DNA of 64,000 nucleotides, from the NCBI GenBank assembly GCA_019057375.1, contig DXJF01000011.1, positions 64,001-128,000 of the forward strand, read 5' to 3'. Under the pieces are notes generated by a model. The model was given only the letters and a program-made list of their open reading frames with translations. It ran no database searches and was not told the DNA's origin. This document shows positions 12,094 to 34,543 of this stretch, piece after piece. A program made the translations under genes and the position numbers. Origin of the DNA: Candidatus Heimdallarchaeota archaeon (lineage in GTDB: Archaea > Asgardarchaeota > Heimdallarchaeia > Heimdallarchaeales > Heimdallarchaeaceae). Positions within the stretch are counted from its first letter, which is position 1. Every line of letters starts with the position of its first letter.

Positions 12094-12140
12094 TAATAAC
12101 AGATATTAATTTTCAGCTATATAAATCTGTGATAATACTA

Positions 12141-14858: not shown

Positions 14859-14941
14859 TTATAAACTGAGTAAAACCATATTTACTATATCTGAATCTTG
14901 TTGGGTTTAAATAGATATTTTGCATTTCATTATTGAGATAG

Positions 14942-15112: not shown

Positions 15113-15210
15113 AGAGTTTTTTCTTTCAATTTCAAGAAACTTAGACTTTTAGTGGGTTTATAAGGGGAATTACTATATTTTCTTTGAAGCTAGCAATACG
15201 CAAGATAACA

Positions 15211-15308
15211 TTTTAGTCGATGAACCTCTTTCTATAGCTAGCTTCAATATTTTTCTTAACAAGAATTTTTATTGTAAACCAAAATTAGCTGACAATAACT
15301 CTCCTAGA
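15211..15308. repeat. native 23S 3' trailer including processing-stem 3' arm (15285-15309); duplicated at 4977-5074
   Basis: 15285-15309 is a perfect 25-bp inverted repeat of 18935-18959. Confidence 0.9.
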
Positions 15309-15671
15309 ATCTGACGAACCAATTTCCATTTTTCCTAACTACGCTTGAGCAATTAGTGATTGTGGGCTAAACATCTCGCCGAAGCTCGACGCGTACACCC
15401 CAATTCTATCAACCGGATCTTCTTTCCGCGCTCTCATCTATATCGAAGGTTACTGTCACCAGTCCCCTTATAGTGATACAGAGTGGGTGACTCGTTTCGA
15501 GAGTAGCTTCGAGCGTTGATGCATTCCGCTCTTATCTACGAGGGCTTAGCTACCCGGCGATACCCTTTAGGATAACCGGTACACCAGAGGCCCCAGCCGC
15601 CTGTTCCTCTCGTACTGTGGAGACTTTACTCTCAATCACCCGCCAGCACCATCAGATAGAATCCAACCTGT

Positions 15672-15826
15672 TTTGCGTGAATTTAAGCCCGAGTATTGAT
15701 CTTCGATAGAAGGGATTTCCCGTAAGGGGGGTTTACAACTATCAAAGACTTTTACATACTTGGATGAAGTTCAATTGAAGTATTACTACTATACTTCTAC
15801 AGAACTCCACTATAGCTTAAATCCAT
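15672..15826 (-). other. 155-nt BHB-type intron in 23S, near E. coli position 2599/2600
   Basis: Interrupts GUGAG|ACAGG; terminal stem uggauuuaagcu/ggcuuaaauuca, bulges AGA and AAA around helix UGUG/CGCA; cleavage after the 2nd bulge nt restores the exon. Confidence 0.85.
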
Positions 15827-15975
15827 CTCACAACGGTCTAAACCCAGCTCACGTTCCCTTTTAATGGGCGAACAACCCCACTCTTGGCGGCTGAATCACC
15901 ACCAAGCTAGGAAGAGCCGACATCGAGGTAGCAAGCCGTGAGGTCGATGTGAACTCTTACCCACGACAACTCCGT

Positions 15976-16364
15976 TCAGGGCTGCGCTTGCGCTATGCGC
16001 ACATCGGCTTTAAGGATCAGTTGTCACCTGGTATAACGACATAGGCAGTTACATAATCCTTAACCTTATCTTCATGTCCTCACGCTTATTTTTGGCTCTC
16101 CATCTTTCGTGTTTATTTAGGGATTTATCTATTCTAAATGGATTTGTGACAGAAATTAGATTCACTCTGCTCAAGTTTTGTAGCCTTTTAATGGCGAAAA
16201 CTTTCGTTTCCTCACGTGGAAGAAAGACTGAAGCTATAATTAAATTCACTCAATTTTACTTTTCTGCCTCGGAAAAGATGGACTTTATCAATAAGCGTTA
16301 CAGACAGAGAGCACTCTTTGTGATAAACAATCACTTCTTCGTGATAAACACTCAGAAGCGCAGT
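15976..16364 (-). other. 389-nt BHB-type intron in 23S, near E. coli position 2450/2451
   Basis: Interrupts GGGGUA|ACGG; stem cugcgcuu/aagcgcag, bulge UAA, helix GGGG/CCCU, bulge GAA. Confidence 0.85.
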
Positions 16365-18934
16365 TACCCCTGGAGTAACTTTTCTGCCACCTCCGCCGCC
16401 TACTAATGGCACTGCGAAGGATCGCTAGGCCCTGCGTTAACATCTGCGAACTGTATTGGTGAGTTCACAGTCAACCGAGCTTTTGCCCTTGCACTCTTCA
16501 CCGGATTTCTGTCCCGGTTGAGCTCGGCTTTGGGCCCTCTTGATATCTTTTCAAGAGGCTACCGCCCCAGTGAAACTGCCAGGCAGGGGGTGTCCCCCTC
16601 GCAAGAGGTAAGTCGTACCAATGCGCAAGGTCAGTATTTCAAGTTCGACTCCCCTACATCCCGGAGAATGTAGGATCAGCATCTCCTGACTATGCTATGC
16701 ATGCACACCAATACAACAGCCCCTGACAGCAGTAAAGCTTCACAGGGTCTTCTCTTCCCGATGGTGCGCTCCAGACTGTTCGCTGGACTGTGGGTTCAGT
16801 AGGCTTCGGGTGGAGACAGTGGGCACCTCGTTGGTCCCTTCATGGACGTCTGTAATTAGCAGACAAGGCATTTGCCTACCTTAAGAAGCTCATAGTTAGC
16901 TCCGGCGTTTACTGGGTCTTAGCCTGGTTGAACCCAGGTTTCAATCACCAGCACCGGCCAGGATTCACTAACTGTACTAAGGCTTTCGCCCTTGCAGTTA
17001 GCTATGTTTTTATTAAACAGTCGGGTGCCCCTAGTCACTGCGACCTGGTAAGGCATACACCTTCCCAGGCATCCCTTATACCCAAGGTACGGGACTAATT
17101 TGCCGATTTCCTTCACCCGAGCTCCCCTAACACGCTTTAGCCTTCTAAGCTAGCCACACCTGTGTCGGTTCTGGGTACGGTCACGCGTAATCGTTCTCTT
17201 TGCTTTTTCATGGGCTGTTGGGGTTGATGGCAGCCAGCAACCTATGGCCGGCCTCTTCATCTATTCTTCTGGTTCTCACCTTAACGGTTCTTCCCAGAAT
17301 TCTATAATTTAACTAGGATATGCTCCTAGGCCACCTACCCACCAGCGTTAGCTCAGAGCTTGCGTCGCCGCGTCTATACGCGTGGTACAGGAATATGAAC
17401 CTGTTTCCCTTTCGAACGACTCGTTTTAAGATCGTCCTTAGGACCGACTAACCCTTGGCTGACGAACAGTGCCAAGGAACCCTTGGGCTTTCAGCGATGA
17501 GGATTCTCACCTCACTATGCTCCTACTACCACCGAGATCTGCAAATCTAATCGGTCCACTGGGAATCACTCCCCAGCTTCTGCCCAACCAGATCGCCCCC
17601 CTACCTGAGACTCTTGCGGAGTCCAAATGGGTATCGGGACCCGGTTTAGCCCCGTCCATTTTCTGAGCCCAACAACTCGATGAGTAAGCTGTTACGCTTT
17701 TTTTAACGGATAGCTGCCTCTAAGCTTACCGCCTCATTGTCTTAGTCGTTGGACGTCATTCTGTTTAACATTTAACCGGGATTTAGGGCCCTTAACCCAT
17801 TGTAGGGTTGTTCCCCTTTCGGCCATATCCCTTGCGGATACGCGCCCGTCTGTCGCCTTCTACAGCGCTTGCAAGTTCGGAGTTGGAAGGGAGGGTGAGG
17901 ATTTCACTCCCCAGAACCTCCCGTCCGTAGCTCTACCTCACAAGCCGCCTTCAGCGACGCTATCCTGTGGTGATACTTCGGGGGGAACCAGCTATCAGCA
18001 GTTTAGATTGGTCTTTTGCCACTATCCCCAACTCAGAGGAATGAATTGCATATCAATAACCCTTCAGGCCTCCACGCTCCTTTCGAAGCGCTTCACCTTG
18101 GTCAGGGATAGATCAACTGCTTTCGGGTCTTACACCTGTGACTTCACGCCCTTATCGGACGTCGCGCCTTGCCGAAGCTGCGCGCTGGTCGCTTTCGCTA
18201 CGCCACCGTATTAACTTAGGCTTGCCACAGACATAAACTCCTCGGCCCGTGTTTCAAGACGGAACGGATAACTCTGGTCCTCTCAGCTCGTACTACCACC
18301 TCACGATGGGTTCCTTCACCGAGACTCTACCCTTTCAAGCCATCCACGTCTGTTACCATGTAGTTTCAGGGACTTTTCACTCTCGTATTTCGAATACTTT
18401 TCAACTTTCACTCACGTTACTAGTGCGCTATCGGTCTAGGGGAGTATTTAGGCTTGGGAGTTAGTCCTCCCATATTTGCGCGACAAATCCAAGCCACGCT
18501 AGTCTTGATACTACTAAGCCGAGCGCTTACGTTTACGGGGTTATTACCCTCTATGACGCCCCTTTCCAGGGGCCTTCAACTTCACGCTTTCGGTCTATGT
18601 TGTAGTCAAAACACCACATCTACCTTAATTTTTCAAAAAAGGAATTCGGTTTGGCCTGTTCCGGTTTTACTCGCCGTTACTACCGGAATCACAATTGTTT
18701 TCTTTTCCTGCAGGTACTTGAATGTTTTGGTTCCCTGCGTTCCCCGCCATTACTGGCTGTTACAGTTTATTAGACTGTAACCGGAAATCCGATTCGGGAA
18801 TCTGTGGATCGTAGACTGTCTGCGTCTTCCCACAGCGTTTCGCCGCTTACCGCGCCCTTCATCGGCTCCCTAGCCGAGTCATCCACTACATGGCGTATGC
18901 ATAGTGTAGGTTACTCTAGAAATCAGTTTTCGCC

Positions 18935-18959
18935 TTCTAGGAGAGTTATTGTCAGCTAA
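18935..18959 (-). promoter_or_regulatory. 23S processing-stem 5' arm with BHB-like junction
   Basis: Perfect complement of 15285-15309, continuing inward as ggcg/cguc with bulges. Confidence 0.85.
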
Positions 18960-19226
18960 CTAAACGTAATCGTTTAGGGATTATCATAAATCCTGGAGGT
19001 GATAAACACGCAAACTATTGCGCGAGTAGGGTTTTTATTCCCTTTGTTTATAATTGTTCCGTTTTTGAACATAATCGCAATCTTTCTGATCGCGTTCCTA
19101 CCCGTTAAGGTAAGATACAACAGATAAGCAAACATCGATAGATATTCACATTATCAACAAAATGAGCTATAGATAAAAAGGTATTGTTTTAAGATAAAAT
19201 TTCCTTAAAGCTACGGAAGATTTTTA

Positions 19227-19670
19227 GTGCTTGAGAACGACTCTTATTTGAGTTACATGAACCTTGATGAACATCTCTCCGAACTTAAACAACGTGCTGA
19301 AGAATCAAGTGTCAATGCTTTTGCTCCTTACAGTGATTTTATTATTGGTGCAGCTTTGCTAATGAAGAGTGGTAACATCTATACTGGATGTAATGTTGAG
19401 TTCTCAGATTATCTTGCTCTTCATGCTGAAGTTAATGCTATAGGGACAGCTATCAACAGTGGTGAAAATGATATTCAAGCTGTAGTAGTTTTTTCAAAAA
19501 GTTCACCACCTGTTCTACCTTGTGGATCATGTAGACAAAAATTATCTGAGTTCGCTCAGTTGAATAACCACGATATACAAGTGATTGCTTTTAACGATAA
19601 ACAAGAGCAAATAGAGTTCTTACTAAGTGAACTTTTACCAGGAGCTAAGATACAAGTAAATAAAAAATAA
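19227..19670 (+). CDS. cdd: cytidine deaminase
   Basis: HAEVNAI and PCGSCRQ Zn motifs; YSDFIIGAALL. Confidence 0.9.
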   Translation: MLENDSYLSYMNLDEHLSELKQRAEESSVNAFAPYSDFIIGAALLMKSGNIYTGCNVEFSDYLALHAEVNAIGTAINSGENDIQAVVVFSKSSPPVLPCGSCRQKLSEFAQLNNHDIQVIAFNDKQEQIEFLLSELLPGAKIQVNKK

Positions 19671-19675
19671 CTTAC

Positions 19676-19858
19676 CTATTCAATTATTTCGTAGTACATA
19701 CAAGAGCCACATAACCAGAATTTCTTAATTTCAGTTAAATTATAATCATCAGGAAGATAGTTCTCTCTTTTGATCATTAATGCCCCACATTTTGGACATT
19801 CTTTTTGTTCATCACTCATAGACTTATCACATTCATCTAAACTTCTATACAAATGCAC
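19676..19858 (-). CDS. small Zn-ribbon protein
   Basis: CPKCG...CGSC; likely start at MSDEQ. Confidence 0.5.
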   Translation of the reverse strand: MHLYRSLDECDKSMSDEQKECPKCGALMIKRENYLPDDYNLTEIKKFWLCGSCMYYEIIE

Positions 19859-20093
19859 ATTAATATTTTACGAAAGTCCTAGCGGAATCATTTGATTTTT
19901 AGGCTAGTAAAAACCCATTCTAAGCCTAGGTTGAAGAATGAATATAATTGGATTTGAGATCTATATACTACGAGTGAAATAACCCTTTTCTTCCTTCCAT
20001 TTGGATTTTAAAAGGGGCAGTCAAACATTATTAGAGACATACAAACAAAACATGATTATTAACAGAAATATAGAAGAAATTCAGAAGAGGAAA

Positions 20094-20198
20094 TTAAAGG
20101 AAGGACCCTTTGTGTAAGATTAAAGCTGTCATTGCTTTAGTTTTTTCCCTTTTGATTTGTTTTGCGATTGTCTCAAGAGTTTTTGCGTTCTTTTCCAT
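20094..20198 (-). CDS. 34-aa small ORF MEKNAKTLETIAKQIKREKTKAMTALILHKGSFL
   Basis: Translated by hand; SD-like aggataggtg upstream. Confidence 0.4.
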   Translation of the reverse strand: MEKNAKTLETIAKQIKREKTKAMTALILHKGSFL

Positions 20199-20299
20199 TT
20201 TTTGCACCTATCCTAACATAAGCTCTCCTTTTAAAATAGGTTAACCACAAGTTATGGTCACAAGTTGTGTCATAATCGCGAAAAAAATGATTGTAAAAA

Positions 20300-20335
20300 A
20301 TCTTACCACACAATTATAATTTTCTGTGGTAAGAT
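20300..20335. promoter_or_regulatory. operator-like inverted repeat atcttaccaca-N14-tgtggtaagat
   Basis: Perfect 11-bp arms between divergent small ORF and cupin gene. Confidence 0.5.
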
Positions 20336-20432
20336 ACATCTAATGACTTTTGGGGGGGTTAAATTCTGATTAACAAAACCCTCCTTTTCATCAATCCTTA
20401 TAAATCGCTACTTCACACAACATGCGTTTATC

Positions 20433-20768
20433 ATGAAAGAAGTATTTCCGGAAGCAATAAGAAAACTACCTGAAGCAGATATTCCCATACAAGGACTTAC
20501 AGCCTTTTTATCCCAAGATAAGAATCATCAAATTGTCTTTATGCATTTCAATCAAGATGTAGAAGTTCCCGCACACTCACATGGAGCTCAATGGGGAATT
20601 GTGCTAGAAGGGGAAATAGTATTAACAATAGAGGACAATGAACAAAAATATACTAAAGGAGATCGTTTCTATATTTTGGAAGGAGAGACACATTCCGCAG
20701 AAATACATGCAGGATATGCTAGCATGGAATTTTTTGCAGATAACGATAGATACAAAGCTAAGGAATAG
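20433..20768 (+). CDS. cupin domain protein
   Basis: PAHSHGAQWGIVLEGEI..GD...HSA cupin motifs. Confidence 0.85.
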   Translation: MKEVFPEAIRKLPEADIPIQGLTAFLSQDKNHQIVFMHFNQDVEVPAHSHGAQWGIVLEGEIVLTIEDNEQKYTKGDRFYILEGETHSAEIHAGYASMEFFADNDRYKAKE

Positions 20769-20780
20769 AGATAAATTAAT

Positions 20781-20855
20781 TTAAGCTGGTGACCAAAATG
20801 GTGGAGTTATGCTTTCGTCGCCATCTTCAGGATCGTATTTCGGTTCATTCATCAT
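20781..20855 (-). CDS. YDP/PPxWxP family peptide, copy C: MMNEPKYDPEDGDESITPPFWSPA (24 aa)
   Basis: Translated by hand; upstream ggggtgctttaatag...taacctttcctgagatgaac cassette. Confidence 0.85.
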   Translation of the reverse strand: MMNEPKYDPEDGDESITPPFWSPA

Positions 20856-21035
20856 GTTCATCTCAGGAAAGGTTATCATTTTAGTTAGACAAAGCTATTA
20901 AAGCACCCCAAAGAAAAGACTGACAGTTACAGCTATTTCTGATTGGAAGAGTTGGCTAATAGATAATTGGCTTGATGAGTTTGAAAGATTAAAACCTTAT
21001 TTTCTTAATTCAGAGCAATTATGACAACTAAAAAA

Positions 21036-21093
21036 CTCCAAGGAATACAAGAACCCCGAGAGAAAGATTCTACAGAAGTAGAGAAATAAGGGG
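21036..21093. repeat. copy of 16S 3' trailer / processing-stem arm (distal copy)
   Basis: ctccaaggaatacaagaaccccgagagaaagattctacagaagtagagaaataagggg, similar to 24680-24736 and 30208-30267. Confidence 0.9.
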
Positions 21094-21185
21094 TGAAAGA
21101 ACGAGTTTTATTAAATAGAAATTGTAAAAGTTGTTTCAAATGTTGTGCTTAGAAACAATTTTGAAGATTATATAAAATATCAAGG

Positions 21186-24100
21186 TTAATTTATGTTTTC
21201 AACATATTTTATTATTTCATGACTTATCATGTAACTTATTCTTTTTCCAATACCATCAATTAAATTTGACATAAAAATATCTCCTGCGTATGTATCCTCC
21301 ATAATCTCAAGAATCAAAGATGGATTTATATGGTGGAAGATATCCAATAGAATTTTTGGATTGTAATTGCTTTCTACATGGGTTGCTGCATATGTTAACC
21401 AAAGAACATCCTCTTTATTTCTGATTAATTGCACTAAATTTGGTATTAATTTTATAGCTATATCTTCTTCTAAGCCTGCAATTTCTAGAAAAGGATAAAC
21501 TACCGTATCAAATGAATAATCATAATTTAGTATAATTGATTCAGAATTAATTTTATCTATTAAAAATACAGTTAGATCTTTGTTAAATACACATAATCCT
21601 TTGATAAAATGAAACAAATCAACAATATTCCATTTATCTTCTAGCTTATTTTTAATAAAATCAGAATCAAGTATAGAATTTATATCTAAAAGAAGATCGT
21701 TTTTTGCAATATATCTCAGAGAATACAAAGTAACACCAATGTCATGAAGATCTTTTTCCGTTTTTATTTTTTCATAAAGAACATCCTTATCTAGTAATAC
21801 AAGTATTCGAGAAATTAAATCCTCAGAAAAAAGTGATGCACTACTCAAAAGACATTTAACACCAATTAAATCTTCAGAACAATTAACTTTTTCAACTAAA
21901 TTCTTAATATTTTTCTTGTTCAATACAAGATTAATTGAGTCTGTTTCACCTAAAAAATCTAAAATTATCTCTATCTGAGACAAGTTTGTTTCAGAGTCAA
22001 TTCTTTTCGTAAAATAATCAAAAATTCTTGTTTTTTTGATATTAAACTGTTTGTTTTTTCCTAAGTTATAATAAAAAAGTTTATTCATGAAATTAATAAG
22101 ATGAATAAAATCTTCATGCTCTATTGTTTTACTCAAAATGATAGATTTTCCAATGATTCCAGAGGCTATCTTAGCTAGATTATAATTTTGGTTGATTATA
22201 GTACTAAGAAAAGAAAACGAACTATCAGGCAATATCCAGTTTATTCTCTTCAAAATTTTTCTGATTTTAATTTTCCTAAGAAATATTCTTATATTTTTAT
22301 TACTCATTTGCCAAAATAAAGATTCAATACTTTGTACAAACATCTTGCAATCTATAACATTTTTGAATTTCTTAATAAGAATATTCAGATATTCTTTTTG
22401 GTACTTCGAAATGATGAATCTTTCATAAAGCATTGTTATAAAGTATAAATCTTCTTCGTACTTCATGCTTTCTAATAAATATTTCATAATCTCTCCGTCG
22501 CTAAGAAGATAATCAACAATACCTTTGGTATTATCATTCATAAGAAATTTCAAAATTTTAATTTTATAATCCTCATTTGAGTGAAGTATGTACTCTTTGA
22601 AGAGATTAAAATCATCCTCGTATCTTTCACCAAGTAAAAGTCGCAAATTATAGGAAATGCAATTTGAGAATTTTATTGCAGAATAATAGAGCTGTGCAAC
22701 AGATTGATGTGACAGAATATAAGTAATCTGAAAATAAGCACTACCAATGTGATGAATGTTGTGTTTTTCGTATAAATTCCAAACGTTTGATATATGGACT
22801 ATTTCTACTGGATAGTATAGCAAATGTTCAATTATTTCATGCTTTTCTAACAAATATTCAAGGATATGATTATGAATTTTTAAATTCTGAATTAGATAAT
22901 TTTTCTCAACCCTAATATTATGTTTGGAGAATACAGATAAAATAAATACACAATCATAAAATTGATCAAGCTCTTTATGATTAAAAACTTCATCTAGACT
23001 TTCAAGTATATATTGATAGATTTCCTCTTCATGAACTTCACATTTTTCATGATCTATTGAGTTTAGAGCAAATTCTAACAACCACAAATCTTGCCAATAC
23101 TTACTCAATTGAATTTGAAGTTTAGAAAAGTTATTATGATTTCGCAAATTAGAATCATTCGGTATATGTTTTTTTACGATTTCTTCAGCAATTTCTTCAG
23201 CTGTAATTTTTAATATGGGATTTCTCTCAAATTCAGAATTTCCTCTTATTTTGAATTCAATAAGTCTTGTTCCTGCAAGTACCAAGCTTTTTGAAGACGC
23301 ATTATGTAATTTACATATGTTATTAAAAGAATTGAGATTTTCATGAATATCATCAAGAATTATTAATGGTTCTTTTCTATCATATAGAAGTATTTTGCAA
23401 AGTTCTTCTATTTTTTCACGATTTTCTTCCTTAAAACTCAGATAATATACTGGTCGTTTTTTTGCCAATATAAAACCCACGTGCTTCAAGAATACAGATT
23501 TTCCTGATGCTGAATCACCTAAAACTATAGTTCTTTTCTGTTTTTCCAATTCTTGAATGCATTCTTTAAGTACTCTTCTTTCAACTATTTTTCCTTCCTC
23601 AAAATTTGACCAAACAGGTATTTTTTGTTTACTTTCAAAAACCTGATCTTTCCTTAAAACATGCTCAATCGAGTTTTTTTCTATTTCCAAATATATGTAT
23701 GAACTAGATCCCTTCTCTCTCAAGTAATCATGTATAATATGTTTCTTAATTGTCGTTCCTTTACAATAATTTTTAGAATTAATGTGACCAAGAAAGTATC
23801 TTATATTGCTTTTGTTTGTTTGATATCCATATTGTTCAGCAATTTCTATTATATGATCTTCTAGTGAATCAAGTTGGATACATTTGAATTCTACTTTTTT
23901 AATGAAATCTGATAGAATATCAACTGTTATTTTACTACCAAACATTTCAGAATAATTTTCCGGAATAATTTTACATATATCCGATAGTTCTTCTTTTGGT
24001 ATTATAATTTTTGAATCTGAAAAAAACTCATCTTTGATAGGTATATTACTATAAAAAACGAAAGTCTCAACTCCTTTTGAACGAACCAATAATTGAAGCA

Positions 24101-24323
24101 AAGGACCTCTTTTTCCTGAATAGAAAAGTTGTTTTGGAGTCCAGCTACTGCTGCTTTGGATACTTTTAGCTTCCCCAATGCAGATTTTTCTTCCGTTAGT
24201 ATAAAAAGAACTGTCTTCATAGTTTTTTTCTATAGAAAATTCATCATATTTGTTTGATAGAATATGGTATAGTGCAGTTAAAATTTGGTAATTAAATTTA
24301 TGTCCAAGATGCTCATCTATCAT
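21186..24323 (-). CDS. STAND/Avs-like protein: N-terminal PD-(D/E)xK-like nuclease, P-loop NTPase, helical C-terminal repeats
   Basis: YEDSS...IGEAKS; Walker A GDSASGKS; Walker B LIILDD; 1045 aa. Confidence 0.65.
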   Translation of the reverse strand: MIDEHLGHKFNYQILTALYHILSNKYDEFSIEKNYEDSSFYTNGRKICIGEAKSIQSSSSWTPKQLFYSGKRGPLLQLLVRSKGVETFVFYSNIPIKDEFFSDSKIIIPKEELSDICKIIPENYSEMFGSKITVDILSDFIKKVEFKCIQLDSLEDHIIEIAEQYGYQTNKSNIRYFLGHINSKNYCKGTTIKKHIIHDYLREKGSSSYIYLEIEKNSIEHVLRKDQVFESKQKIPVWSNFEEGKIVERRVLKECIQELEKQKRTIVLGDSASGKSVFLKHVGFILAKKRPVYYLSFKEENREKIEELCKILLYDRKEPLIILDDIHENLNSFNNICKLHNASSKSLVLAGTRLIEFKIRGNSEFERNPILKITAEEIAEEIVKKHIPNDSNLRNHNNFSKLQIQLSKYWQDLWLLEFALNSIDHEKCEVHEEEIYQYILESLDEVFNHKELDQFYDCVFILSVFSKHNIRVEKNYLIQNLKIHNHILEYLLEKHEIIEHLLYYPVEIVHISNVWNLYEKHNIHHIGSAYFQITYILSHQSVAQLYYSAIKFSNCISYNLRLLLGERYEDDFNLFKEYILHSNEDYKIKILKFLMNDNTKGIVDYLLSDGEIMKYLLESMKYEEDLYFITMLYERFIISKYQKEYLNILIKKFKNVIDCKMFVQSIESLFWQMSNKNIRIFLRKIKIRKILKRINWILPDSSFSFLSTIINQNYNLAKIASGIIGKSIILSKTIEHEDFIHLINFMNKLFYYNLGKNKQFNIKKTRIFDYFTKRIDSETNLSQIEIILDFLGETDSINLVLNKKNIKNLVEKVNCSEDLIGVKCLLSSASLFSEDLISRILVLLDKDVLYEKIKTEKDLHDIGVTLYSLRYIAKNDLLLDINSILDSDFIKNKLEDKWNIVDLFHFIKGLCVFNKDLTVFLIDKINSESIILNYDYSFDTVVYPFLEIAGLEEDIAIKLIPNLVQLIRNKEDVLWLTYAATHVESNYNPKILLDIFHHINPSLILEIMEDTYAGDIFMSNLIDGIGKRISYMISHEIIKYVENIN

Positions 24324-24679
24324 ACAAATATCATCTTTTTTGTTTATTTCAATAAAGTTTGAAATTAAATATCGAATTCAACTTAATCTATATGTTATTT
24401 TTTACAAAGCTACTTAAATGCTTTTTTTTCTATTGGTAAAGATGAAAAATTAATATTTATAGATAAATGGAAACCTTTTGAAGATTTTGAGAGAAATATG
24501 AATAAGTTGTTAGAAACTCTAGAAGTATTAATTTAAGATATCATATTGAGAGAAATATAAGTAAAACCTGAATAAGTTAATTATATAGATATATGGATGA
24601 ATGCTAATTTGTTGGAAGAATTTACTTCAATTAAACATTATTTTTACTAAAATAAATTTCAAACTATGAAGAATAAATA

Positions 24680-24786
24680 CCCCCAAATAATACAAGAACC
24701 CCGAGAATAAGATTCTACAGAAGTAGAGAATAAAGGGTTGGGGTTGGGAAGTCTTGAAAACTTCCGAACGTAGGAGGTGATCCATC
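24680..24786. repeat. copy of the last ~15 nt of 16S plus 3' trailer (att-like)
   Basis: 24767-24786 aacgtaggaggtgatccatc is identical to 30348-30367; the stem arm is also present. Confidence 0.9.
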
Positions 24787-24832
24787 AGCTTTGAATTAAA
24801 AATTCCTTGGGGTTTAACAATGCAAGTTTATA

Positions 24833-25144
24833 TTAAATATCAATGTAACAGTTCCTGATAAGAAAATGCTTGGTAGTTGAGGTAATATGGATTCCAAAGG
24901 AAGTGCTAGACGTAATATTGTAGTTCTCAATCAAGTAAGGATCTTCATATGTACCTGAACCTGGAAAAGCTAAGAAATCTTCATCTGAAGTAATCTCTAT
25001 AGGGTCATGGTTTGTAAGATAATTAGTGTTATTAGATTGGTTAGCTTTAGTTTCTCCGTCAACAGTAATTGTTACAGAAACTAAAAAACAAAGTAGGATA
25101 AGTGTTCTTCTACATCTAGGGGACATAGTATTCTCTAGATTCAC
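24833..25144 (-). pseudogene. truncated N-terminus of a secreted right-handed beta-helix (NosD-like) surface protein
   Basis: Signal peptide + HDPIEITSDEDF..FPGSGT..DPYLIENYNI; stops 46 bp before the repeat at 24786. Confidence 0.6.
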
Positions 25145-25237
25145 TTAATTATTCTATATAAACCAGCAAGAAATTATTCAATACATTTTGGTTTTACCAC
25201 GTTTTTAAGTCATTTTAATTATAATAACTCAGAAACA

Positions 25238-28200
25238 ATGAGAAACAGAATTTGGCTTTGTAAAATCCTCTTATTGGCTAGCATACTTTGTGGAGGCTTT
25301 CTTCTAATTAACAGTGAGGTTGAAGCTGAACCAGGATTAAGAGATGTGACAACCAATGCTTTATTACCTTATGATATTAATTTTGAATTTAACTTCTCTG
25401 GCAGTGAAGAAGTTTATAATTTGCATTCAAATCAAATTGAATTAGGAGAACTAAATAAACTCACACTTTCTTTCCGAGTAAACGGTATGAGCGGTTCTCC
25501 AGGATTAAAAATAGTGTTCATTTTCATGACTATTAAAGTTGGATTTGTTGTTGACCGAATTTTTAATGATGATACTTTACACAATTTAACTGAGACTTTT
25601 CTTTTTCCTCACAACTATTCAGGTAGTATGGATATTACTGTCATTTGTAGTGGTAGTTCAACTTCTACAAGAAATGGATTTCTTACCATATTTAATAGCA
25701 CTAAAATAGAACAAATGAATATTCCCACAATATCAGAGGATTCTTTTTCTCTTCCAACTTCCCAGGATTGGGTGATGTTCAAAGGTAATATATATTCTTG
25801 GAATAGAGGAGGAATTACATCTGCTTTTTACAATTACGATGAAATGGCACTAGTAAGTCTTAACATATCCTTCTCTTCAAATTATTTTCAGTCAATAGAA
25901 AATGTAGTTGAAATTTCTTTAAATGGTAATTTTGTTGCAGAAGATTATTTCATTGAAGATTTAAGTAATAATATTGATATTCAATTTCAACCTGAAATAG
26001 GTTTGAATCTCTTATCATTGAATTTCTCTGTTTCTTATTCCTTTAATCCAATTTATATTTCAAATATCTCTCTTTTTGGCTCTCTTTTTAATTATGAATC
26101 TAGCAGTTCTACTTCAGATTCATTTAGTTGGGAAAGTGGTTTTTTTTCCTACTCTTTTGATTTATCTACGTTAAAACCCCCTGGGTACTATTCAGAACAA
26201 GTTCTTCACTTAACAATCAATTACCAATGTTTCGGAATGAAAATCTCTTCAGGAATAAACTATTTTCTAAAAATAGGGACATCTATTCTCGAGGAAGGAA
26301 CCATAAGCTATCTCGAGCAAATGTATGAGAATAATAGTTTAAAGATCGAGACCTTTACTACGGAATATCACAACCCTCTTACGTTTAAAATTTTCGGCAC
26401 TTCGAATGGGGTGGGAGGACTTACTATTTTAAATTCAAGTACGATTGAAATATCTCACATAGGTGAGCTAACAAAACAACCTTTGAGTAGAACCATAGCA
26501 GATGAAAGAAGTGTTAATGGTCCTTCTCTTGCTGTTTCGCTTAGTTTTTATGATGTCTTTCAAACTTATAGGATTGCAGCTCCTGTACAATTAGCTGTTA
26601 ATTTTAATACAGTTTCTACTTATGAACATCCCTTTGATTTACTTACAGTAACAGTCAAAATTGATGGTGTAAGAGTAATATCAAAAAATGTTCATATTCT
26701 CGGTTTTGCAAATTTTAGTAAAGAATTTTCCTTAGAACATGGGTATCACGAAGTTAGAATAAATTTCCAATTTTCTGGCATTAATACTCCTCTCACAGTA
26801 GAACAATTGAAGTACCAACTAGCTTTACAAATTGAAGAAGAAATTACTGTCTCAACAGCACTCTCTTATGCTCGTCAATCAACATTCTATCTTCTAGCCT
26901 TTTACGCCCTCCTCTATGTCCTTCTAGATGTTAAAGAAATAAATCGAGAGAGAATCAAGGAAAAAGAAAGTTCTATTCGTGAAGATTCTATCGAAGATGC
27001 AAATGATGACTCTAGGAATTTATTACGTACGGCTCTCATGGTTGTTGTAAATATATCTATTAATTTGACTCCTTCTGTTTTCTTCTTGTTGCATGGAATT
27101 AATTACTGGTTTATTTTACCCTTAAGCTTCTTTGTAGCTTTACATTTCAGTATCAAAATTCTCTTTTCGAATTTTTCGAAAGATGCAATAGTTGGGTTTT
27201 GGAACAAAACAAGAGACTTCTTTAGAGATATCTATTCCCTCTCAGGCTTTCTTAATAAAGTTACAAGATCATTCGGAAAACTCTCTTTTAGAAGCTTAAC
27301 TAGATTATTGGTCTTCGCTATAGCTTTTCTGAGCTTTGGCTTATTGTTTTTCTTGGCAGATAATATTCCTTCAAATGCTGTCAAGGAAGTCTGGATTGTC
27401 TATGCTCTTTTGCTAGTTTGTATTGTTATATCCTCTCTTACTTTATTCTACACCCTTCATTTAGTTAGAGACATGGCTTTTATAGAGGACAATCTGAAAA
27501 GAATAAAGAGGTTAGGTTATGCTTCCATCACACTTGTTGCTGGTTTTCTATTTGTTCTTATCAGCATGTTAGGCACTAAACTCAGTCTTTCAAGCATCTG
27601 GGGTTTCCTTTCTCCAATCCTCCTTTTTGGTATTTTTCGTACAACAACTAAACTAGGAAAGATTTCTGCCAAAGAAGAAAAGCTCTCCTTTGACGATTTT
27701 CTGGATAAAGGAATGTTCTTCACTGATAAGAAGGAGATGCGAAAAGCTGTCAGTTTTGGTATCAATACTCGCTCTACTTGGGAAAAGAAAGGGTATGAAC
27801 TCCAGAAACATCAGATAAAAGGTGTTATCGCTTACGATTACAACCCTGGAGATAAGATCAATCTCTATGAACTGGCTGAGAAGATTAAACTCCCCTTTAA
27901 GAAAACAGAGGAACTTGTTCAGGAGATAGAAAAAGAAGTTCCTAGATTAGGAAAATATGACCCTCAATCTAAAATCTATACCAAGAGCAAAGAGAATATT
28001 ATAGAAGCTCAGGAAATTCAGGAAAAAATTGTTCCAGATAAATATGAAAATGAAGAAAAGAATGTAGAGATGAGTAAAATACCAACAAAGAATATTTCTA
28101 CAAAAGAAAGATTTCAGAAGCTGCTTGAAGAGGTAGTAGGAGAGAGTGACGAGGAGAAGAGGAGAACTCTAGAATATGTGAATCATTTGACAGCTAAAGA

Positions 28201-30181
28201 AGCGGAAGTATATCAAAAATTCTTGAAAAAGGGATTGGGAGACCAAGATATAGTCATAACTAATTCTGACAGAGAATTTTTACAAAGAGCATGGAAGAAG
28301 ATACATGTTCAAGAAGATATTTTTCAAAGAAACAGTTCTAGCAATTTGCTGAGGGAATATTATGATAAGATATCAGATGCTCACAACGGTTTTGATGATG
28401 TTGTGTTTGAGATAAAAAAAGAATTATTCAAAATATCCTTTTTGGAGTATAAAGTAGGTGATCGTGCAACTTACTATCCTTGGGAGTATATTCCTAAATT
28501 TGGATATCATTTGCTACGTAGAGAATTAAATGAAAAACAACTTCTTAAGTACATAGAAAAAAACCCAATAGTTGAATCTCTTTTTTCATCTCAATCAAAT
28601 TTGGGGAAAAAGAAAGTTCCTTTAATCATTAGAAAGCTATACTACGACAGAAACAGGCAGTATCATATCATTGGAAATGATTGGTTAGTCAAATTCATGA
28701 ATGGAGACTTTCAGAATGCTCTTTCTCATTTAGTCACTAAAGGTCTACTAACAAACAAACAGAAAAAGAGAATTACTGTGGGATTATCGGAATTTAACCA
28801 ATTGGTAGGTTTAGCTCAGAATGGACACACTTTTCGAGTTTTCGATAATACGAAAAAAATACAATTAGAATCTTGTGCAGAAATAACATTAGGTGGAAAA
28901 CAAATTATCTTATACCACGATTTCTTTTTACCTAAGTTTGAGATTAATCAAGAAAAAATCAGCATAAGTCTTCAAGGTTTTAATAAGATAACAACTTCTA
29001 AACACAATCAATTGAACCTGCTAATTAAGAAAGAATACTTCCTCAGAGACGATCAAGAGGACAAGATTCTTGTTCTCTATGCTAAACTTAAAAGAGAATT
29101 TCTTTTAGATTTGATAAAATCTAAATTAATGGACCATTTACAGGTTTTATATGATAAAAGATATATTTCTGGACTTGATACAATTACATCATCAGATTTT
29201 ATTCCGTCTATTGATAAATTAAAAAAGCAACCCACAAGACAGAGGGGTATAGTTTGGTTTTATGATGATATTCAAGTTTCACCTATTGATTTTCTTACTA
29301 ACAAAAAATTCAAAGAAATTCTACAGGAAAAAGATGAAGAATTGCTATTTTCTAAATTAGCTTCATTACTAAGTGACACTGAAACTTTTTTTGAAGACGA
29401 AGGTAGAAAGCAATTTTCTATAGCTTATGAAGCCTATAAGAATGGACATTTCGATTTCTTTCTTTTTAATCAAAGTGTTAATGAGATCTATAAACCTCCT
29501 ACTTACTCTTTTAGGCAAGGTAATATTCCTAAAACTGGTGTTATATTAGTTGACCACAACAATAGAATAATCAACTTAATTTCCCCCTCAAAAGCTGTTA
29601 GTATTCTACTAGAAGAGGGTGATATATTGCTTAACTTTCCTTTTAGATGGGATTCACACTATGGTTATTTTGCATTCACCCAAAAAGGAAATAGAATGAG
29701 TAATGTTGCCAAGTCTTGGTATGATTGGTTGATTAAGGCAAATCTTCCCATTCCTTCAGGTTCCAGTGGTAGAATTCCTGATATATCAGTAATTGCAATG
29801 TTACTAGAGTGGTGGACAAGGCAAGAAAATTTTGTTATCAATAGGATTCTTTCAAACCAAGTTTTTATTGAGAGTTGTAGGAAACACAAAATTGTGGTTG
29901 ATAAAGATTCTACAATGGTTATTGATTCAAAAAAGAATTCTTACAAACTTGCACGAGTTTCTGTTACTCAAACAGGAAATATTAGACATAAAGAAAATTG
30001 GAAATATTACGCGTTTTATAATGACAAAATACGCACAGTTATTGATGTTCTTAAAGCTGCAATTTTTGATTTAGTTTTACAGAAAGGCAATATTTCTTCC
30101 GCTCAAATACCTGATTTGAGAAATTGGTTGAAGATAAATTGGTTGGAAGAATTTGAAAAACTGAAAGAATATTTCTTTTGA
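25238..30181 (+). CDS. 1647-aa membrane protein; ectodomain paralogous to 12141-14858, TM bundle, winged-helix-like segment, large unassigned cytoplasmic tail
   Basis: Aligned by eye: ELGELNKLTLSF..PHNYSGSMDITVICSG vs ELQEYNSLTIFF..PQNFIGSMIIVISCEG; FSYSFDLSTLKP vs VDHSFDLSSLKP. Confidence 0.75.
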   Translation: MRNRIWLCKILLLASILCGGFLLINSEVEAEPGLRDVTTNALLPYDINFEFNFSGSEEVYNLHSNQIELGELNKLTLSFRVNGMSGSPGLKIVFIFMTIKVGFVVDRIFNDDTLHNLTETFLFPHNYSGSMDITVICSGSSTSTRNGFLTIFNSTKIEQMNIPTISEDSFSLPTSQDWVMFKGNIYSWNRGGITSAFYNYDEMALVSLNISFSSNYFQSIENVVEISLNGNFVAEDYFIEDLSNNIDIQFQPEIGLNLLSLNFSVSYSFNPIYISNISLFGSLFNYESSSSTSDSFSWESGFFSYSFDLSTLKPPGYYSEQVLHLTINYQCFGMKISSGINYFLKIGTSILEEGTISYLEQMYENNSLKIETFTTEYHNPLTFKIFGTSNGVGGLTILNSSTIEISHIGELTKQPLSRTIADERSVNGPSLAVSLSFYDVFQTYRIAAPVQLAVNFNTVSTYEHPFDLLTVTVKIDGVRVISKNVHILGFANFSKEFSLEHGYHEVRINFQFSGINTPLTVEQLKYQLALQIEEEITVSTALSYARQSTFYLLAFYALLYVLLDVKEINRERIKEKESSIREDSIEDANDDSRNLLRTALMVVVNISINLTPSVFFLLHGINYWFILPLSFFVALHFSIKILFSNFSKDAIVGFWNKTRDFFRDIYSLSGFLNKVTRSFGKLSFRSLTRLLVFAIAFLSFGLLFFLADNIPSNAVKEVWIVYALLLVCIVISSLTLFYTLHLVRDMAFIEDNLKRIKRLGYASITLVAGFLFVLISMLGTKLSLSSIWGFLSPILLFGIFRTTTKLGKISAKEEKLSFDDFLDKGMFFTDKKEMRKAVSFGINTRSTWEKKGYELQKHQIKGVIAYDYNPGDKINLYELAEKIKLPFKKTEELVQEIEKEVPRLGKYDPQSKIYTKSKENIIEAQEIQEKIVPDKYENEEKNVEMSKIPTKNISTKERFQKLLEEVVGESDEEKRRTLEYVNHLTAKEAEVYQKFLKKGLGDQDIVITNSDREFLQRAWKKIHVQEDIFQRNSSSNLLREYYDKISDAHNGFDDVVFEIKKELFKISFLEYKVGDRATYYPWEYIPKFGYHLLRRELNEKQLLKYIEKNPIVESLFSSQSNLGKKKVPLIIRKLYYDRNRQYHIIGNDWLVKFMNGDFQNALSHLVTKGLLTNKQKKRITVGLSEFNQLVGLAQNGHTFRVFDNTKKIQLESCAEITLGGKQIILYHDFFLPKFEINQEKISISLQGFNKITTSKHNQLNLLIKKEYFLRDDQEDKILVLYAKLKREFLLDLIKSKLMDHLQVLYDKRYISGLDTITSSDFIPSIDKLKKQPTRQRGIVWFYDDIQVSPIDFLTNKKFKEILQEKDEELLFSKLASLLSDTETFFEDEGRKQFSIAYEAYKNGHFDFFLFNQSVNEIYKPPTYSFRQGNIPKTGVILVDHNNRIINLISPSKAVSILLEEGDILLNFPFRWDSHYGYFAFTQKGNRMSNVAKSWYDWLIKANLPIPSGSSGRIPDISVIAMLLEWWTRQENFVINRILSNQVFIESCRKHKIVVDKDSTMVIDSKKNSYKLARVSVTQTGNIRHKENWKYYAFYNDKIRTVIDVLKAAIFDLVLQKGNISSAQIPDLRNWLKINWLEEFEKLKEYFF

Positions 30182-30207
30182 TATTCAATTTGGGTGAAAT
30201 AAAAAAG

Positions 30208-30265
30208 CCCCCAAAGAATACAAGAACCCCGAGAGAATGACACTACAGAAATAGAGAATATAAGG
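30208..30265 (-). promoter_or_regulatory. 16S processing-stem 3' arm (proximal trailer)
   Basis: Imperfect inverted repeat of 31965-32026. Confidence 0.8.
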
Positions 30266-30352
30266 GGACTTCTTTCGAAGCCAGAGTTGGTCATAACAAG
30301 GCCTAAAAACAGGCCCTGCATGATCAAGGAATCCTTGAAGGATTCCAAACGT

Positions 30353-31863
<1,511 letters not shown>

Positions 31864-31964
31864 CCTGATTCGATTATGATACGATCTATTTGCTATCTTC
31901 CATGAATTGAACTATTTTAGCGCACATACACGTACTAGTGTTTTTGTACATACTAAATTTTGTT

Positions 31965-32026
31965 CCTTAAAATTCTCTAAATTTCTGTAGCATCAGAACA
32001 TCTCGGAGTTCTTGTTTTCCTTGGAG
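31965..32026 (-). promoter_or_regulatory. 16S processing-stem 5' arm
   Basis: Complementary to trailer copies at 30208, 24680 and 21036. Confidence 0.8.
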
Positions 32027-32669
32027 GTGAGTGTAAAATTCATACAGTACTTTTTTATGTTTTGCAAGGGTTTTTTAAGTTATCGTTCGACGGCTTATTG
32101 TAGTCAGCCTACAATAACTAATCTGCACTCTTACAATATGACTACTGTCTTTTCTCTTTTATTGGTTGCTATTTAAGAGTTTTTTGCCGCTATAAAAAAT
32201 CAAACGTAAATTCAGAAGAATCAGTAAACGTAAAGGAGCGGATTCTTTTAGCCGAACCCGCTCTAAAGACATGGCTTAACATCCACTCATCAGACGTGAG
32301 TCTGACTGTTCGTGGCAATATACTTAGAAGAAGTTCGATATATATACTTTGCTCTTTTTTCTGTTATACATCTTCCAGAGTATTCGTAGATTAGAGGCTT
32401 AAAGTCGGTAAAATAACTCTGAAAGTAATTGACACAATTTTTCTTTGGAAATTAATGATGATACTATAATATCAACTATGAGAAATAGAGGGTGGTGATA
32501 AGGAAAGGATAGTTTAGTTTTTTTTTAGCAAACGAGGAATCCCTATATTTCTTTTTTCCTCTGTTCTGATAGAAATTCTAGTTTAAGAGAAATTTAGCAC
32601 AAAATTTCTTGTGAGGATATACGATCTTGTAAAACATTAACTATAACCTAGCTTAAAGAGATGAACCTA

Positions 32670-32728
32670 ATGAGATATTATGACCAACAGATGATGACGA
32701 CTGGTTACCCTCAGAATGGTTTCCTTAA
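32670..32728 (+). pseudogene. YDP/PPxWxP family peptide, copy D, missing one C: would read MRYYDPTDDDDWLPSEWFP
   Basis: gaccaaca versus gacccaaca in copy E; otherwise colinear with E. Confidence 0.7.
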
Positions 32729-32866
32729 ACTATTCTAATCTTACTTTTTTTATTCAGATAACCAATTTTAAGCGAAGATGTTTTATACCTTTTTCTCTTA
32801 AATTGTACAGAGTAAAACTATCAATTGACATCAAACCTTTGAGGAAAGGTATTGTGGGGATAAAGT

Positions 32867-34543
32867 ATGCTAGATACTGAAGAGTTTCGAGAAAGAAAAG
32901 AAAGAATTTTTCAGAATATTGGAAGTCTTAATACTTTATCTGATCTTAGTGACCATGTCTTGGATTTAGAACTCGTTTGTGCAAACGAAAGATCTTTGGA
33001 ATTAGCGAACATTCTGAAGAAGACTATAATTGTAGCGAAAGAAATTGAGAATAATAACCTTTTGTATAAGTCATATAGACTGTATTTTCAGCAAATATTT
33101 TCATATGTTCAGAGATTGGATGAGGCTGAAGAAATAGTTAATTGCATGCAAACAATTGCAGAATCAAGTAATAACATAGAACATGAATCTCTTGTTTATT
33201 TTTCAAAAGCTCTTCTAATTAGAATTCATGGACTAATTGAAAAATCTGATGAACTTACAATTAAGGCAATGAGAAAAATAGAAAAAGGAAAGAAAATTTA
33301 TCCCGATACATATTACCGTATTCTTTTTACTTATAATATGTTTATGTGGTATCGTGATAATGATTTTCCAGATGTTTTTTCTAATGTAGAAAAATGTGTT
33401 TCCTATTGGAAAGATACGTATCACACTTTACCTATGATTACAGGGATATTCAGATTACTTAGATTGTACATATTTTCAGGTAATAGTGAAAAATTTAATA
33501 ATTTAATGCAATGGATATTTGAGAAGGAAAGAATACAAGATAATTTAATTGATTATCATTTCACATTACTATATTCCTTCATTGGTCGTATCCAAGCAAT
33601 TCGATTGAATATCGACAAGGCTATAGATTTTTTATCTGAAGCATATCATAGAGTAATTTCTTCAAAATCTGAAGATATAATGATGTACGAATATATTGAA
33701 ATTCAGAAGTTATTGTGTAGAAGCTATGCATTTAAAGGAGAATTTCAAAAATCTTATCAAATCCTTATTGAGTTTCTAAATTTCGTTGAAAGTGATTTTG
33801 TTAAGCAGAATTATCAAACTTCAATGGTAAAAAGACTGTATTTTGGTGTATATTATACCCTGTTGTTTATTTTTGCTCAACTTGATGTTAATATTGATAA
33901 TATAGCAGATACTCAGCTAAAGAGAATACACAATTATACAAAGAATCTTCTTGAAAAATCAAGAATTTCAGAGGATTTACTAATAAGCAATTCTTTAGAT
34001 GACAAACAATTGGATAAAATTAAAATAGAAAAAGATAAGAGACCTGTTGAGTTTGATTTATCTCTGTATCAACAGTTAAATTCTCTTAAGACACAAGCTG
34101 CTTCTGAAAATACAGTTAGTAACATAGAGTATCTGAGAGGTTATGTTTACAACCCCTTATATGCTGACATAATTTTGGGAAAGATTCATCTTTCCATTGG
34201 TAATTTTAGAGAATTTAAGAGTATAGTTAAACAAATGGAAAATAAGGAAAAAGAAGCTGATACTCCTGTTTTGATTCTTTGGATAAAACTATATAGGTTG
34301 CTGTTTGAATACTTAGAAGATCCTGGAAATAAAGTGATATTATCAGAGTTTAGAAAATTGGAATCTTACTGCAAGAAAAATAATTTCATCAAGATGTCAG
34401 AAGAAATTAACTTATACTTCAAACTAATAACTTCAACAAAAACAATCAATAACTTAACTCAAAAATTCCAACAAACAGCTTTTACTGATATTTATAATAA
34501 ACAGTCAAAAAGAATGGTTGTTGAATATCTTGATAGTAAATAA
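32867..34543 (+). CDS. 558-aa all-helical TPR-like protein flanked by peptide genes D and E
   Basis: Repeated amphipathic helical pairs (IDKAIDFLSEAY, FQKSYQILIEF); homologous to ORF at 63562. Confidence 0.7.
   Translation: MLDTEEFRERKERIFQNIGSLNTLSDLSDHVLDLELVCANERSLELANILKKTIIVAKEIENNNLLYKSYRLYFQQIFSYVQRLDEAEEIVNCMQTIAESSNNIEHESLVYFSKALLIRIHGLIEKSDELTIKAMRKIEKGKKIYPDTYYRILFTYNMFMWYRDNDFPDVFSNVEKCVSYWKDTYHTLPMITGIFRLLRLYIFSGNSEKFNNLMQWIFEKERIQDNLIDYHFTLLYSFIGRIQAIRLNIDKAIDFLSEAYHRVISSKSEDIMMYEYIEIQKLLCRSYAFKGEFQKSYQILIEFLNFVESDFVKQNYQTSMVKRLYFGVYYTLLFIFAQLDVNIDNIADTQLKRIHNYTKNLLEKSRISEDLLISNSLDDKQLDKIKIEKDKRPVEFDLSLYQQLNSLKTQAASENTVSNIEYLRGYVYNPLYADIILGKIHLSIGNFREFKSIVKQMENKEKEADTPVLILWIKLYRLLFEYLEDPGNKVILSEFRKLESYCKKNNFIKMSEEINLYFKLITSTKTINNLTQKFQQTAFTDIYNKQSKRMVVEYLDSK

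Follow-up and report, generated by a model that had tools for sequence, protein, structure and literature searches.

How did the 16S and 23S rRNA genes of a Candidatus Heimdallarchaeota archaeon come to be separated by accessory genes that alternate with copies of the 16S 3' flank? We examined this question in a 64,000-nucleotide stretch of assembly GCA_019057375.1 (contig DXJF01000011.1, positions 64,001 to 128,000; here called the window, with coordinates counted from its first letter), which belongs to a metagenome-assembled genome (MAG) of 3.47 Mb in 159 contigs. The window's genome is labeled G000, other G numbers denote related genomes, and L numbers denote contigs or loci of relatives or metagenomes. 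Throughout the family, the DNA downstream of the 16S gene is a hotspot where accessory genes build up in cassettes, each headed by a duplicate of the 16S 3' flank (here named T); in the window, the native copy is called A and the two internal copies are called B and C.

Three trailer copies between the rRNA genes of the window

Both rRNA genes lie on the minus strand according to Rfam, the 16S gene at 30353 to 31863 (RF01959, archaeal SSU) and the 23S gene at 15333 to 18910 (RF02540, archaeal LSU, 2462 bits, model positions 1 to 2987), with a gap of 11.4 kb between them. The leader arm of the 16S processing stem is found at 31960 to 32032 (minus strand), with the complement of the trailer core at 32006 to 32026, and the 5' arm of the 23S processing stem at 18935 to 18959 (minus strand) is a 25-nt inverted repeat, 100% complementary to 15285 to 15309. 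Around the mature 16S rRNA, native leader and trailer are predicted to form a helix of ~65 bp (−75.3 kcal/mol compared with about −23 to −25 kcal/mol for shuffled sequences), i.e., the long leader-trailer helix of an archaeal pre-16S processing stem, with an internal loop at the expected bulge-helix-bulge position whose geometry, judged by eye, is not the canonical 3-4-3.

The original prediction, made from the letters of the window, held that three 16S-trailer copies split an interval of about 11 kb, which Rfam, a repeat search, and alignment bore out. The repeat search returned three direct copies at 21017 to 21095, 24662 to 24740, and 30190 to 30268 (82% and 71% identity to the reference), a second repeat block just upstream of each (20953 to 21002, 24594 to 24643, and 30125 to 30174), and a third repeat shared by 24747 to 24789 and 30328 to 30370 (84%). 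The latter contains the exact 20-mer aacgtaggaggtgatccatc, found at 24767 to 24786 and again at 30348 to 30367, where it covers the 16S terminus as predicted. Such a direct repeat of the target gene's 3' end marks the distal boundary at copy B and also in at least eight relatives. The overall extents are 30125 to 30370 for copy A, 24594 to 24789 for copy B, and 20953 to 21095 for copy C. Since the 16S flank is matched at three places only in the whole 3.47-Mb assembly (E values of 4e-17, 9e-13, and 5e-6), it is not a dispersed repeat.

A complete T unit, read in the direction of the rRNA, begins with the last 12 to 25 nt of the 16S gene, followed by ACGTT and a 6- to 9-bp hairpin whose stem varies among copies by compensatory changes. 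Then come an optional 55-nt insert, the ~65-nt leader-pairing arm with its 21-nt core GGGTTCTTGTATTCTTTGGAG, and a T-run, beyond which lies a relic of the last ~17 codons of a convergent gene for a 1647-amino-acid (aa) protein. In relatives and in copy C, the relic is followed by a TATA-like module and a gene for an acidic peptide of 22 to 26 aa, which in relatives precedes a gene for a ~527-aa TPR-like protein. The original prediction had overlooked this receptor C-terminus relic and, in relatives, the promoter and micropeptide gene within the unit.

The native trailer, copy A (30190 to 30352, minus strand), comprises the T-run, the stem arm (core at 30209 to 30229), the 55-nt insert (~30269 to 30327), and the hairpin (30328 to 30346). 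Copy B (24594 to 24789, minus strand) contains the C-terminus relic (24594 to 24643), the core (24681 to 24701), the hairpin with compensatory changes in its stem (24747 to 24765), and the last ~20 nt of the 16S gene (24770 to 24789). Copy C (20953 to 21095, minus strand) consists of the relic (20953 to 21002), the T-run, and a well-kept stem arm (core at 21036 to 21056), and its 16S fragment and hairpin are decayed or absent. The motif NWLEEF..LK.YF is the natural C terminus of the 1647-aa protein, the same in six orthologs, and the relics in copies B and C derive from this gene end.

All three copies retain the capacity to pair with the 16S leader. When the entire stem of ~65 nt is considered, the computed duplex energy is strongest for the native copy A (−75.3 kcal/mol), followed by copy C (−68.6 kcal/mol) and copy B (−63.4 kcal/mol), compared with about −23 kcal/mol for shuffled sequences. 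An inverted-repeat search found the leader arm at 32001 to 32026 to be 92% complementary to copy C. The suggestion that the distal copy matches the leader better than the native one, and is therefore the older trailer, applies only to the outermost ~9 nt; the age argument fails on the native copy's best pairing over the full stem. Each internal copy resembles the trailer native to some relative, and the nearest relatives of all three copies were found in other genomes.

Two cassettes and a stump are delimited by these copies. Cassette 1, next to the 16S gene, was predicted to hold a 1647-aa receptor and a truncated beta-helix gene, and does so. The first (25238 to 30181, plus strand, convergent with the 16S gene) encodes a secreted or receptor-like protein without any Pfam family in a Pfam scan, and has orthologs in G005, G013, G016, G017, G032, and G033. 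The second (24833 to 25144, minus strand, 103 aa) is a 3'-truncated NosD/beta-helix gene, which in tblastn against the G017 ortholog covers residues 15 to 100 only; the Pfam hit is on the ortholog. Intact orthologs in relatives measure 385 to 394 aa, and the window gene is cut after residue ~100. Behind copy B, cassette 2 carries a gene for a 1045-aa STAND NTPase (21186 to 24323, minus strand; GC content of 24 to 28%). The STAND part of its earlier description as "STAND/Avs-like" holds (PF25199, nSTAND_NTPase5, E = 4.8e-10, 39.9 bits against a cutoff of 34), and the Avs-like part does not, as no PADLOC defense family matched the protein at E ≤ 0.001. A search of the genus's 24 other genomes detected no homolog at E ≤ 1e-10. 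Behind copy C follow a TATA-like module (~20862 to 20925) and an orphan gene for a 26-aa acidic micropeptide (M..KYDPEDGDESITPPFWSPA; 20781 to 20861, minus strand), which aligns with the peptide genes of relatives and differs from them synonymously. Copy C and this gene thus appear to be the remnant of a peptide-TPR cassette whose TPR gene was lost.

The interval is closed by a cupin gene (20433 to 20768, plus strand; PF07883), which forms a conserved distal array end in eight genomes, and a cytidine deaminase gene, cdd (19227 to 19670, plus strand; PF00383, E = 5e-13), which neighbors the 23S leader in G001, G009, G010, and G032. Upstream of the cupin gene, a palindromic motif of operator-like appearance (TCTTACCACA...TGTGGTAAGA) is present at 20297 to 20340; it recurs behind two trailer copies in G010 (L008, ~6400 to 6480 and ~7540 to 7620).

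Trailer arrays and cassette turnover in relatives

The 21-nt core was found in 21 of the 25 genomes of the genus; a genome may hold as many as eight copies and a single contig as many as five in succession, and the reversed-pattern control was near zero. Also, 21 metagenome contigs contain the core, several of them in two or three copies. Where contigs permit, the arrays begin at the 16S gene and finish at cupin, cdd, and the 23S gene (G000, G001, G009, G010, and G032). Genomes of sister genera have their own recent duplicates of the 16S end and trailer at 95 to 97% identity: in the closed genome G041, a single copy begins at 16S position −21 (counted back into the gene) and lies 6.6 kb downstream, the closed genome G042 has two copies 38 and 41 kb downstream, G038 has one, and G037 has two, one of them with 146 nt of 16S. 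Even in another family, G029 carries an independent duplicate of 76 to 85% identity, which has an unrelated trailer sequence and starts at −29. Among contigs of four metagenomes, there are relatives in which the trailer is an A/B hybrid, relatives with intron polymorphisms, and relatives whose native trailer is C-like. These contigs break at T, and the low cover that they give to 21.5 to 24.5 kb of the window is uninformative.

The cargo is diverse and lies in either orientation. It includes peptide-TPR pairs, receptor and NosD/beta-helix genes, STAND, HEPN, AbiV-like, and Schlafen proteins, S8 and S9 peptidases, a beta-lactamase-like protein, a hydrolase, and HEAT and LRR proteins. PADLOC returned no match for the STAND, receptor, Schlafen, HEPN, and AbiV-like proteins. 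Most cassettes of the genus are peptide-TPR paralogs with a period of ~2 kb. For the ~527-aa TPR-like family, a Pfam scan, a PDB profile search, and the ESM Atlas gave weak TPR-type leads only and no recombinase-like signal. More micropeptide genes sharing the TATA-like upstream module occur along with TPR-like paralogs outside the 16S-23S interval (4545 to 4990, 62800 to 64000, and 32670 to 34543); one such outlying paralog of 558 aa (32867 to 34543) is divergent from the 16S promoter side.

Cassette content turns over even among close relatives. G009 is the closest relative, with 99.5% identity to the window in the 5' end of the 23S gene; its order is 16S-T-pep-TPR-T-pep-TPR-T-pep-cdd-23S within 5.9 kb, and no cassette is shared: peptide-TPR cassettes stand where the window has receptor and STAND genes. 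The comparison across relatives that had been suggested as a check on turnover thus finds it, and cargo is not identical in all relatives, as it would be for a static locus. Cassette 1 is syntenic in G005, G013, G016, G017, G032, and G033 and is therefore inherited and old; the order 16S-T-receptor-beta-helix-T was seen in six MAGs and four metagenome contigs. Of the earlier proposal that defense and surface genes were captured serially at the 16S 3' end, this leaves the structural part, namely that the repeats are displaced 16S 3' ends with trailers delimiting defense-like and surface or secreted genes, and removes cassette 1 as a recent capture.

In sister genera (L044 of G040 and L045 of G039), the 16S-23S gap measures 3.7 to 5.5 kb and holds the housekeeping genes cdd, PEPCK, and pyrophosphatase and one trailer only. 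Therefore, the two rRNA genes were apart before cassettes accumulated, and progressive unlinking by cassettes alone, which we had considered, is ruled out by these genes.

The 16S 3' end itself is variable. A 31-nt mini-insert lies inside the window's 16S gene at ~30380 to 30410 (joints at 30377/30379 to 30411), and relatives lack it. Three mini-insert sites of ~30 nt each were observed within the last ~60 nt of the gene (window 30353 to 30440; L005, L006, L008, L022, and L023), after AAGTCGTAA, after CCGTA, and between GCGGA and TGGATC, each with species-variable presence. In contigs from other metagenomes, the insert at 30377/30379 to 30411 is missing and a 30-nt insert is present at 30366.

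Proposed recombination between trailer copies and its alternatives

We infer that cassettes may well be gained and lost by homologous recombination between the trailer repeats, with some events regenerating the 16S end. The left boundaries of the copies lie at −146, −29, and −21 to −13, in mid-hairpin, at the stem start, or at the core edge; with starts that range from 146 nt inside the 16S gene to the margin of the stem core, the copies share no fixed att crossover. Some copies are mosaics: the upstream half of the first copy in G001 is nearest to its third copy (0.91) and the downstream half to its second (0.98), and the downstream half of the window's copy C matches the second copy of G009 at 0.95 while the upstream halves differ. 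Furthermore, the type of junction after TPR genes (13, 17 to 18, or 85 to 88 nt) tracks the genome and not the TPR clade, as defined by a quick IQ-TREE tree. The dead 16S fragment of homologous cassettes contains the site-3 mini-intron in G016 and lacks it in L066, a difference that requires exchange with the native 16S end. The L066 contig (Ga0114922_10125192, 2191 nt) closes on itself through a 123-nt terminal overlap inside a 621-aa open reading frame (ORF), and the cycle of 2.07 kb is a single cassette composed of a 16S fragment from −21, a trailer, and the ORF. This is either a candidate circular cassette or a tandem duplicate.

No recognizable integrase accompanies the arrays. The tyrosine integrase family PF00589 had no match genome-wide in G000, G041, and G037, none was near any 16S locus in five genomes searched, and no integrase or transposase was found within the arrays. 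None of ~50 scanned cargo proteins matched a recombinase family; serine recombinases were not searched genome-wide. A scan of IMG/VR for the T core gave nine hits, all chance matches in GC-rich unrelated contexts, and thus no attP-bearing virus. Free-standing LAGLIDADG homing-endonuclease genes were observed in L028 (G016:C171, 275 to 889), L040 (G041, 7198 to 7818), and L049 (G036:C359, 17 to 454). They are orthologous (51 to 56% identical, with 56% between G041 and G016) and sporadic, occurring in 3 of the 47 genomes of the order; the G041 protein has no match in G000.

In the recombination that we favor, the T copies themselves would be the substrate. Unequal crossing-over, gene conversion, and excision and reintegration of circles consisting of one T and its cargo would add, delete, shuffle, and exchange cassettes, and a crossover inside the native 16S end would restore a functional 16S terminus and move the former trailer to a more distal position. 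In the window, the receptor and beta-helix cassette beside the 16S gene would have been inherited, a deletion or insertion would have cut the beta-helix gene and joined its remainder to copy B, the STAND gene behind copy B would be a lineage-specific gain, and copy C with the orphan peptide gene would be what is left of a peptide-TPR cassette next to the conserved cupin-cdd-23S terminus. Only copy A need function in 16S processing; the internal copies probably do no more than act as poly-T terminators or insulators and supply homology for recombination.

Several points weigh against this explanation. Recombination is deduced from its traces and no event was seen directly, and a tandem duplication would explain the L066 cycle equally well. 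Several recent copies start near the same 16S position (−21 in G041, L066, and G016, and ~−20 in copy B of the window), which hints at a site preference, and the LAGLIDADG gene lies right behind T in G041 and G016, with the third at a contig end in G036. The ~20 to 60 nt of homology upstream of the stem arm are short for classical homologous recombination. Most of the genomes are MAGs, in which repeats may be collapsed or split, and the conservation of the core in internal copies could come from either conversion or selection. By a hand count, mismatches in internal copies amount to ~8% in dead 16S fragments and ~3% in cores, which is not clearly different, and selection on internal cores is therefore not claimed.

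The clustering near −21 and the LAGLIDADG genes behind T are what site-specific integration would predict, a less likely alternative in which cassettes are mobile elements or remnants inserted at the 16S 3' end or trailer by a trans-acting enzyme, either a LAGLIDADG homing endonuclease or an unrecognized recombinase, and repeated insertion leads to tandem accretion as in integrase-less cis-mobilizable elements at tRNA genes. The STAND cassette, unique to the window's genome, fits this alternative as well, and so do the elements HeimM2 and HeimV2, published as insertions between the 16S gene and tRNA-Arg(TCT) (PMC8813620), a layout that G041 shows exactly. Against it stand the lack of a LAGLIDADG or tyrosine integrase match in the window's genome and of any recombinase match among the cargo proteins, boundaries spread from −146 to the core edge with many copies devoid of a 16S fragment, genome-specific junction types, and the absence of T from viral contigs in IMG/VR; moreover, the repeats are long (100 to 350 nt) and diverged and not a short identical core. 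More speculative still, and doubtful, is that the trailer repeats are attachment sites of an undescribed cassette-exchange system, in which single-gene circles of one 16S end and processing arm are excised and reinserted at the rRNA gene by an unrecognized enzyme, possibly the T-associated LAGLIDADG protein or a host activity linked to RNA processing. If true, this would be an integron-like platform anchored on the rRNA gene that also drives 16S/23S separation, in the archaeal family closest to eukaryotes.

The predominance of ~2-kb peptide-TPR paralogs could also reflect plain tandem duplication and divergence, in which an ancestral unit of 16S end, trailer, peptide, and TPR gene was copied in place, the repeats are conserved terminator-promoter intergenic regions, some TPR genes were later replaced, and nothing is mobile. 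The stereotyped gene stops (10 to 18 nt or ~85 nt before the next T) and the succession of T-run and TATA-like module agree with it, yet it is unlikely in view of the unrelated single-gene cassettes in both orientations between T copies, the independent duplicates with unrelated trailer sequence in other genera and another family, the opposite order of B-like and C-like copies in G009 and the window, and neighboring TPR genes of G002 without a T between them; the mini-intron difference between homologous dead 16S fragments is likewise hard to explain. That copies B and C can still form a ~60-bp leader duplex (−63 and −69 kcal/mol against −23 kcal/mol when shuffled), and that the stem arm of copy C is well kept while its hairpin and 16S portion are unrecognizable, would be expected of functional RNA elements, i.e., 3' untranslated regions of cassettes or alternative trailers on read-through pre-rRNA whose pairing with the leader couples the expression of cassettes or the maturation of rRNA to the splicing endonuclease. 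We regard this as very improbable, as many copies retain only the 21- to 26-nt core without a bulge-helix-bulge half, the mismatch counts given above do not clearly separate cores from dead fragments, and gene conversion accounts equally well for the conservation. An assembly artifact, that is, a chimeric or misjoined contig produced by the repeats, had been named as a way in which the pattern could be false. The source is a MAG of 159 contigs, and the contigs of relatives often break at T or 16S, but the window copies, 71 to 84% alike, are too diverged to mislead an assembler, the 16S-T-receptor-beta-helix-T order recurs in the six MAGs and four metagenome contigs and cupin-cdd-23S in several, and two closed long-read genomes have the same architecture, making an artifact hardly credible.

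The 23S flank, related systems, and significance

As the original prediction had noted, the pattern recurs at the 23S end. A distal duplicate of the 23S trailer (4970 to 5074, minus strand; 105 nt) is 96% identical to the native copy at 15204 to 15308, and the two bracket a 10.2-kb accessory block (4970 to 15308). Within the block lie a 905-aa receptor-gene paralog and an ORF of 633 aa, which clusters with a TnpB-like protein from G005. TnpB was rejected as an agent of the 16S array: a TnpB-like gene occurs only at the far edge in G005 and in the window's 23S-side block, never inside the 16S-23S array. The 23S gene itself exceeds the Rfam model by ~590 nt and shows a GC dip at 16000 to 16500; an intron or an expansion may account for the extra length.

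Genomic islands that restore the 3' end of a structural RNA gene are well known from textbooks at tRNA genes and, to our knowledge, not at rRNA genes. As in tRNA and tmRNA 3'-end islands and the tandem accretion of integrative and conjugative elements and cis-mobilizable elements, the 3' end of a structural RNA gene is regenerated here, displaced 3' fragments are left as direct repeats, and blocks accrete in series, including integrase-less blocks flanked by repeat sites. Unlike in those islands, the target is the 16S rRNA end with its processing-stem arm, and the repeats measure 100 to 350 nt and are diverged with variable boundaries. No integrase is present in the locus or, by PF00589, in the genome, and no tyrosine or serine recombinase stands beside an att end (PF00589 was searched genome-wide, serine recombinases were not); with boundaries from −146 to the core edge and mosaic halves, the junctions do not share a fixed crossover core. 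The integrase mechanism that the original prediction had borrowed from tRNA-targeted islands is thus not upheld.

The arrays resemble integrons in being one-sided, with mostly single-gene cassettes, a repeated separator, content that varies among relatives, and a candidate circular form (L066). However, IntI, and with it the set of IntI, attI, and a Pc promoter, is lacking, as no tyrosine recombinase is found in the genome. The repeat is a copy of the rRNA flank and not an attC-type inverted-repeat hairpin site; it represents the 3' arm of the 16S stem, whose partner is the single 16S leader. Cassettes also lie in both orientations, many have their own promoter, and the cassette-repeat junction tracks the genome and not the cassette. 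Free-standing or intron-borne LAGLIDADG genes at rRNA loci have a counterpart in the sporadic gene that occupies a constant position next to the 16S trailer of G041 and G016, with the difference that this gene is absent from the window and most arrays. Classical homing does not duplicate the flanks.

Closest to the present case are HeimM2 and HeimV2, insertions that in Candidatus Heimdallarchaeum occupy the interval from the single 16S gene to tRNA-Arg(TCT) (Wu et al. 2022, Nat Microbiol, PMC8813620). According to that paper, HeimM2 encodes an LRR protein and a homing-endonuclease homolog and carries a CRISPR-targeted protospacer, a LAGLIDADG route was proposed for it, and CRISPR spacers against HeimV2 were also reported. 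Like these elements, the cassettes are accessory or mobile DNA directly downstream of the single 16S gene in the same family, and G041 has the published layout of 16S, LRR protein, homing-endonuclease homolog, and tRNA with the anticodon region tcta. G000 shares the location directly downstream of 16S and has no homing-endonuclease homolog, and the window's genus has arrays of up to five copies per contig (up to eight per MAG) without an endonuclease gene. Duplicated 16S ends, trailers, or arrays are not mentioned in the available text of PMC8813620, whereas here repeats bound the insertions, those in G041 and G042 included. In the literature searched, including the available text of PMC8813620 and PMC8997704, we found no description of trailer repeats as boundaries, of arrays, or of peptide-TPR cassettes. 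Unlinked 16S and 23S rRNA genes are known in Asgard archaea (Juttner and Ferreira-Cerca 2022, PMC8997704). As there, the 16S and 23S genes each have their own processing stem and do not form one operon; in contrast, they are co-oriented here, 3.7 to >16 kb apart across the family, and the gap is partly made up of T-bounded cassettes, with housekeeping genes in sister genera.

Published work had hinted at mobile DNA inserting next to the 16S gene in Heimdallarchaeum. Our finding extends this, and trailer repeats as boundaries provide a precise structural reading of the HeimM2 and HeimV2 insertions. Because an arm of the pre-16S processing stem is part of what is repeated, every event must respect ribosome biogenesis. 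The arrays are family-wide, including two closed Heimdallarchaeum genomes, and concentrate defense-like, surface, and peptide-TPR genes. They also help to explain why the 16S and 23S genes of these Asgard lineages are 3.7 to >16 kb apart or fully unlinked, and the breakup of the rRNA operon thereby becomes testable.

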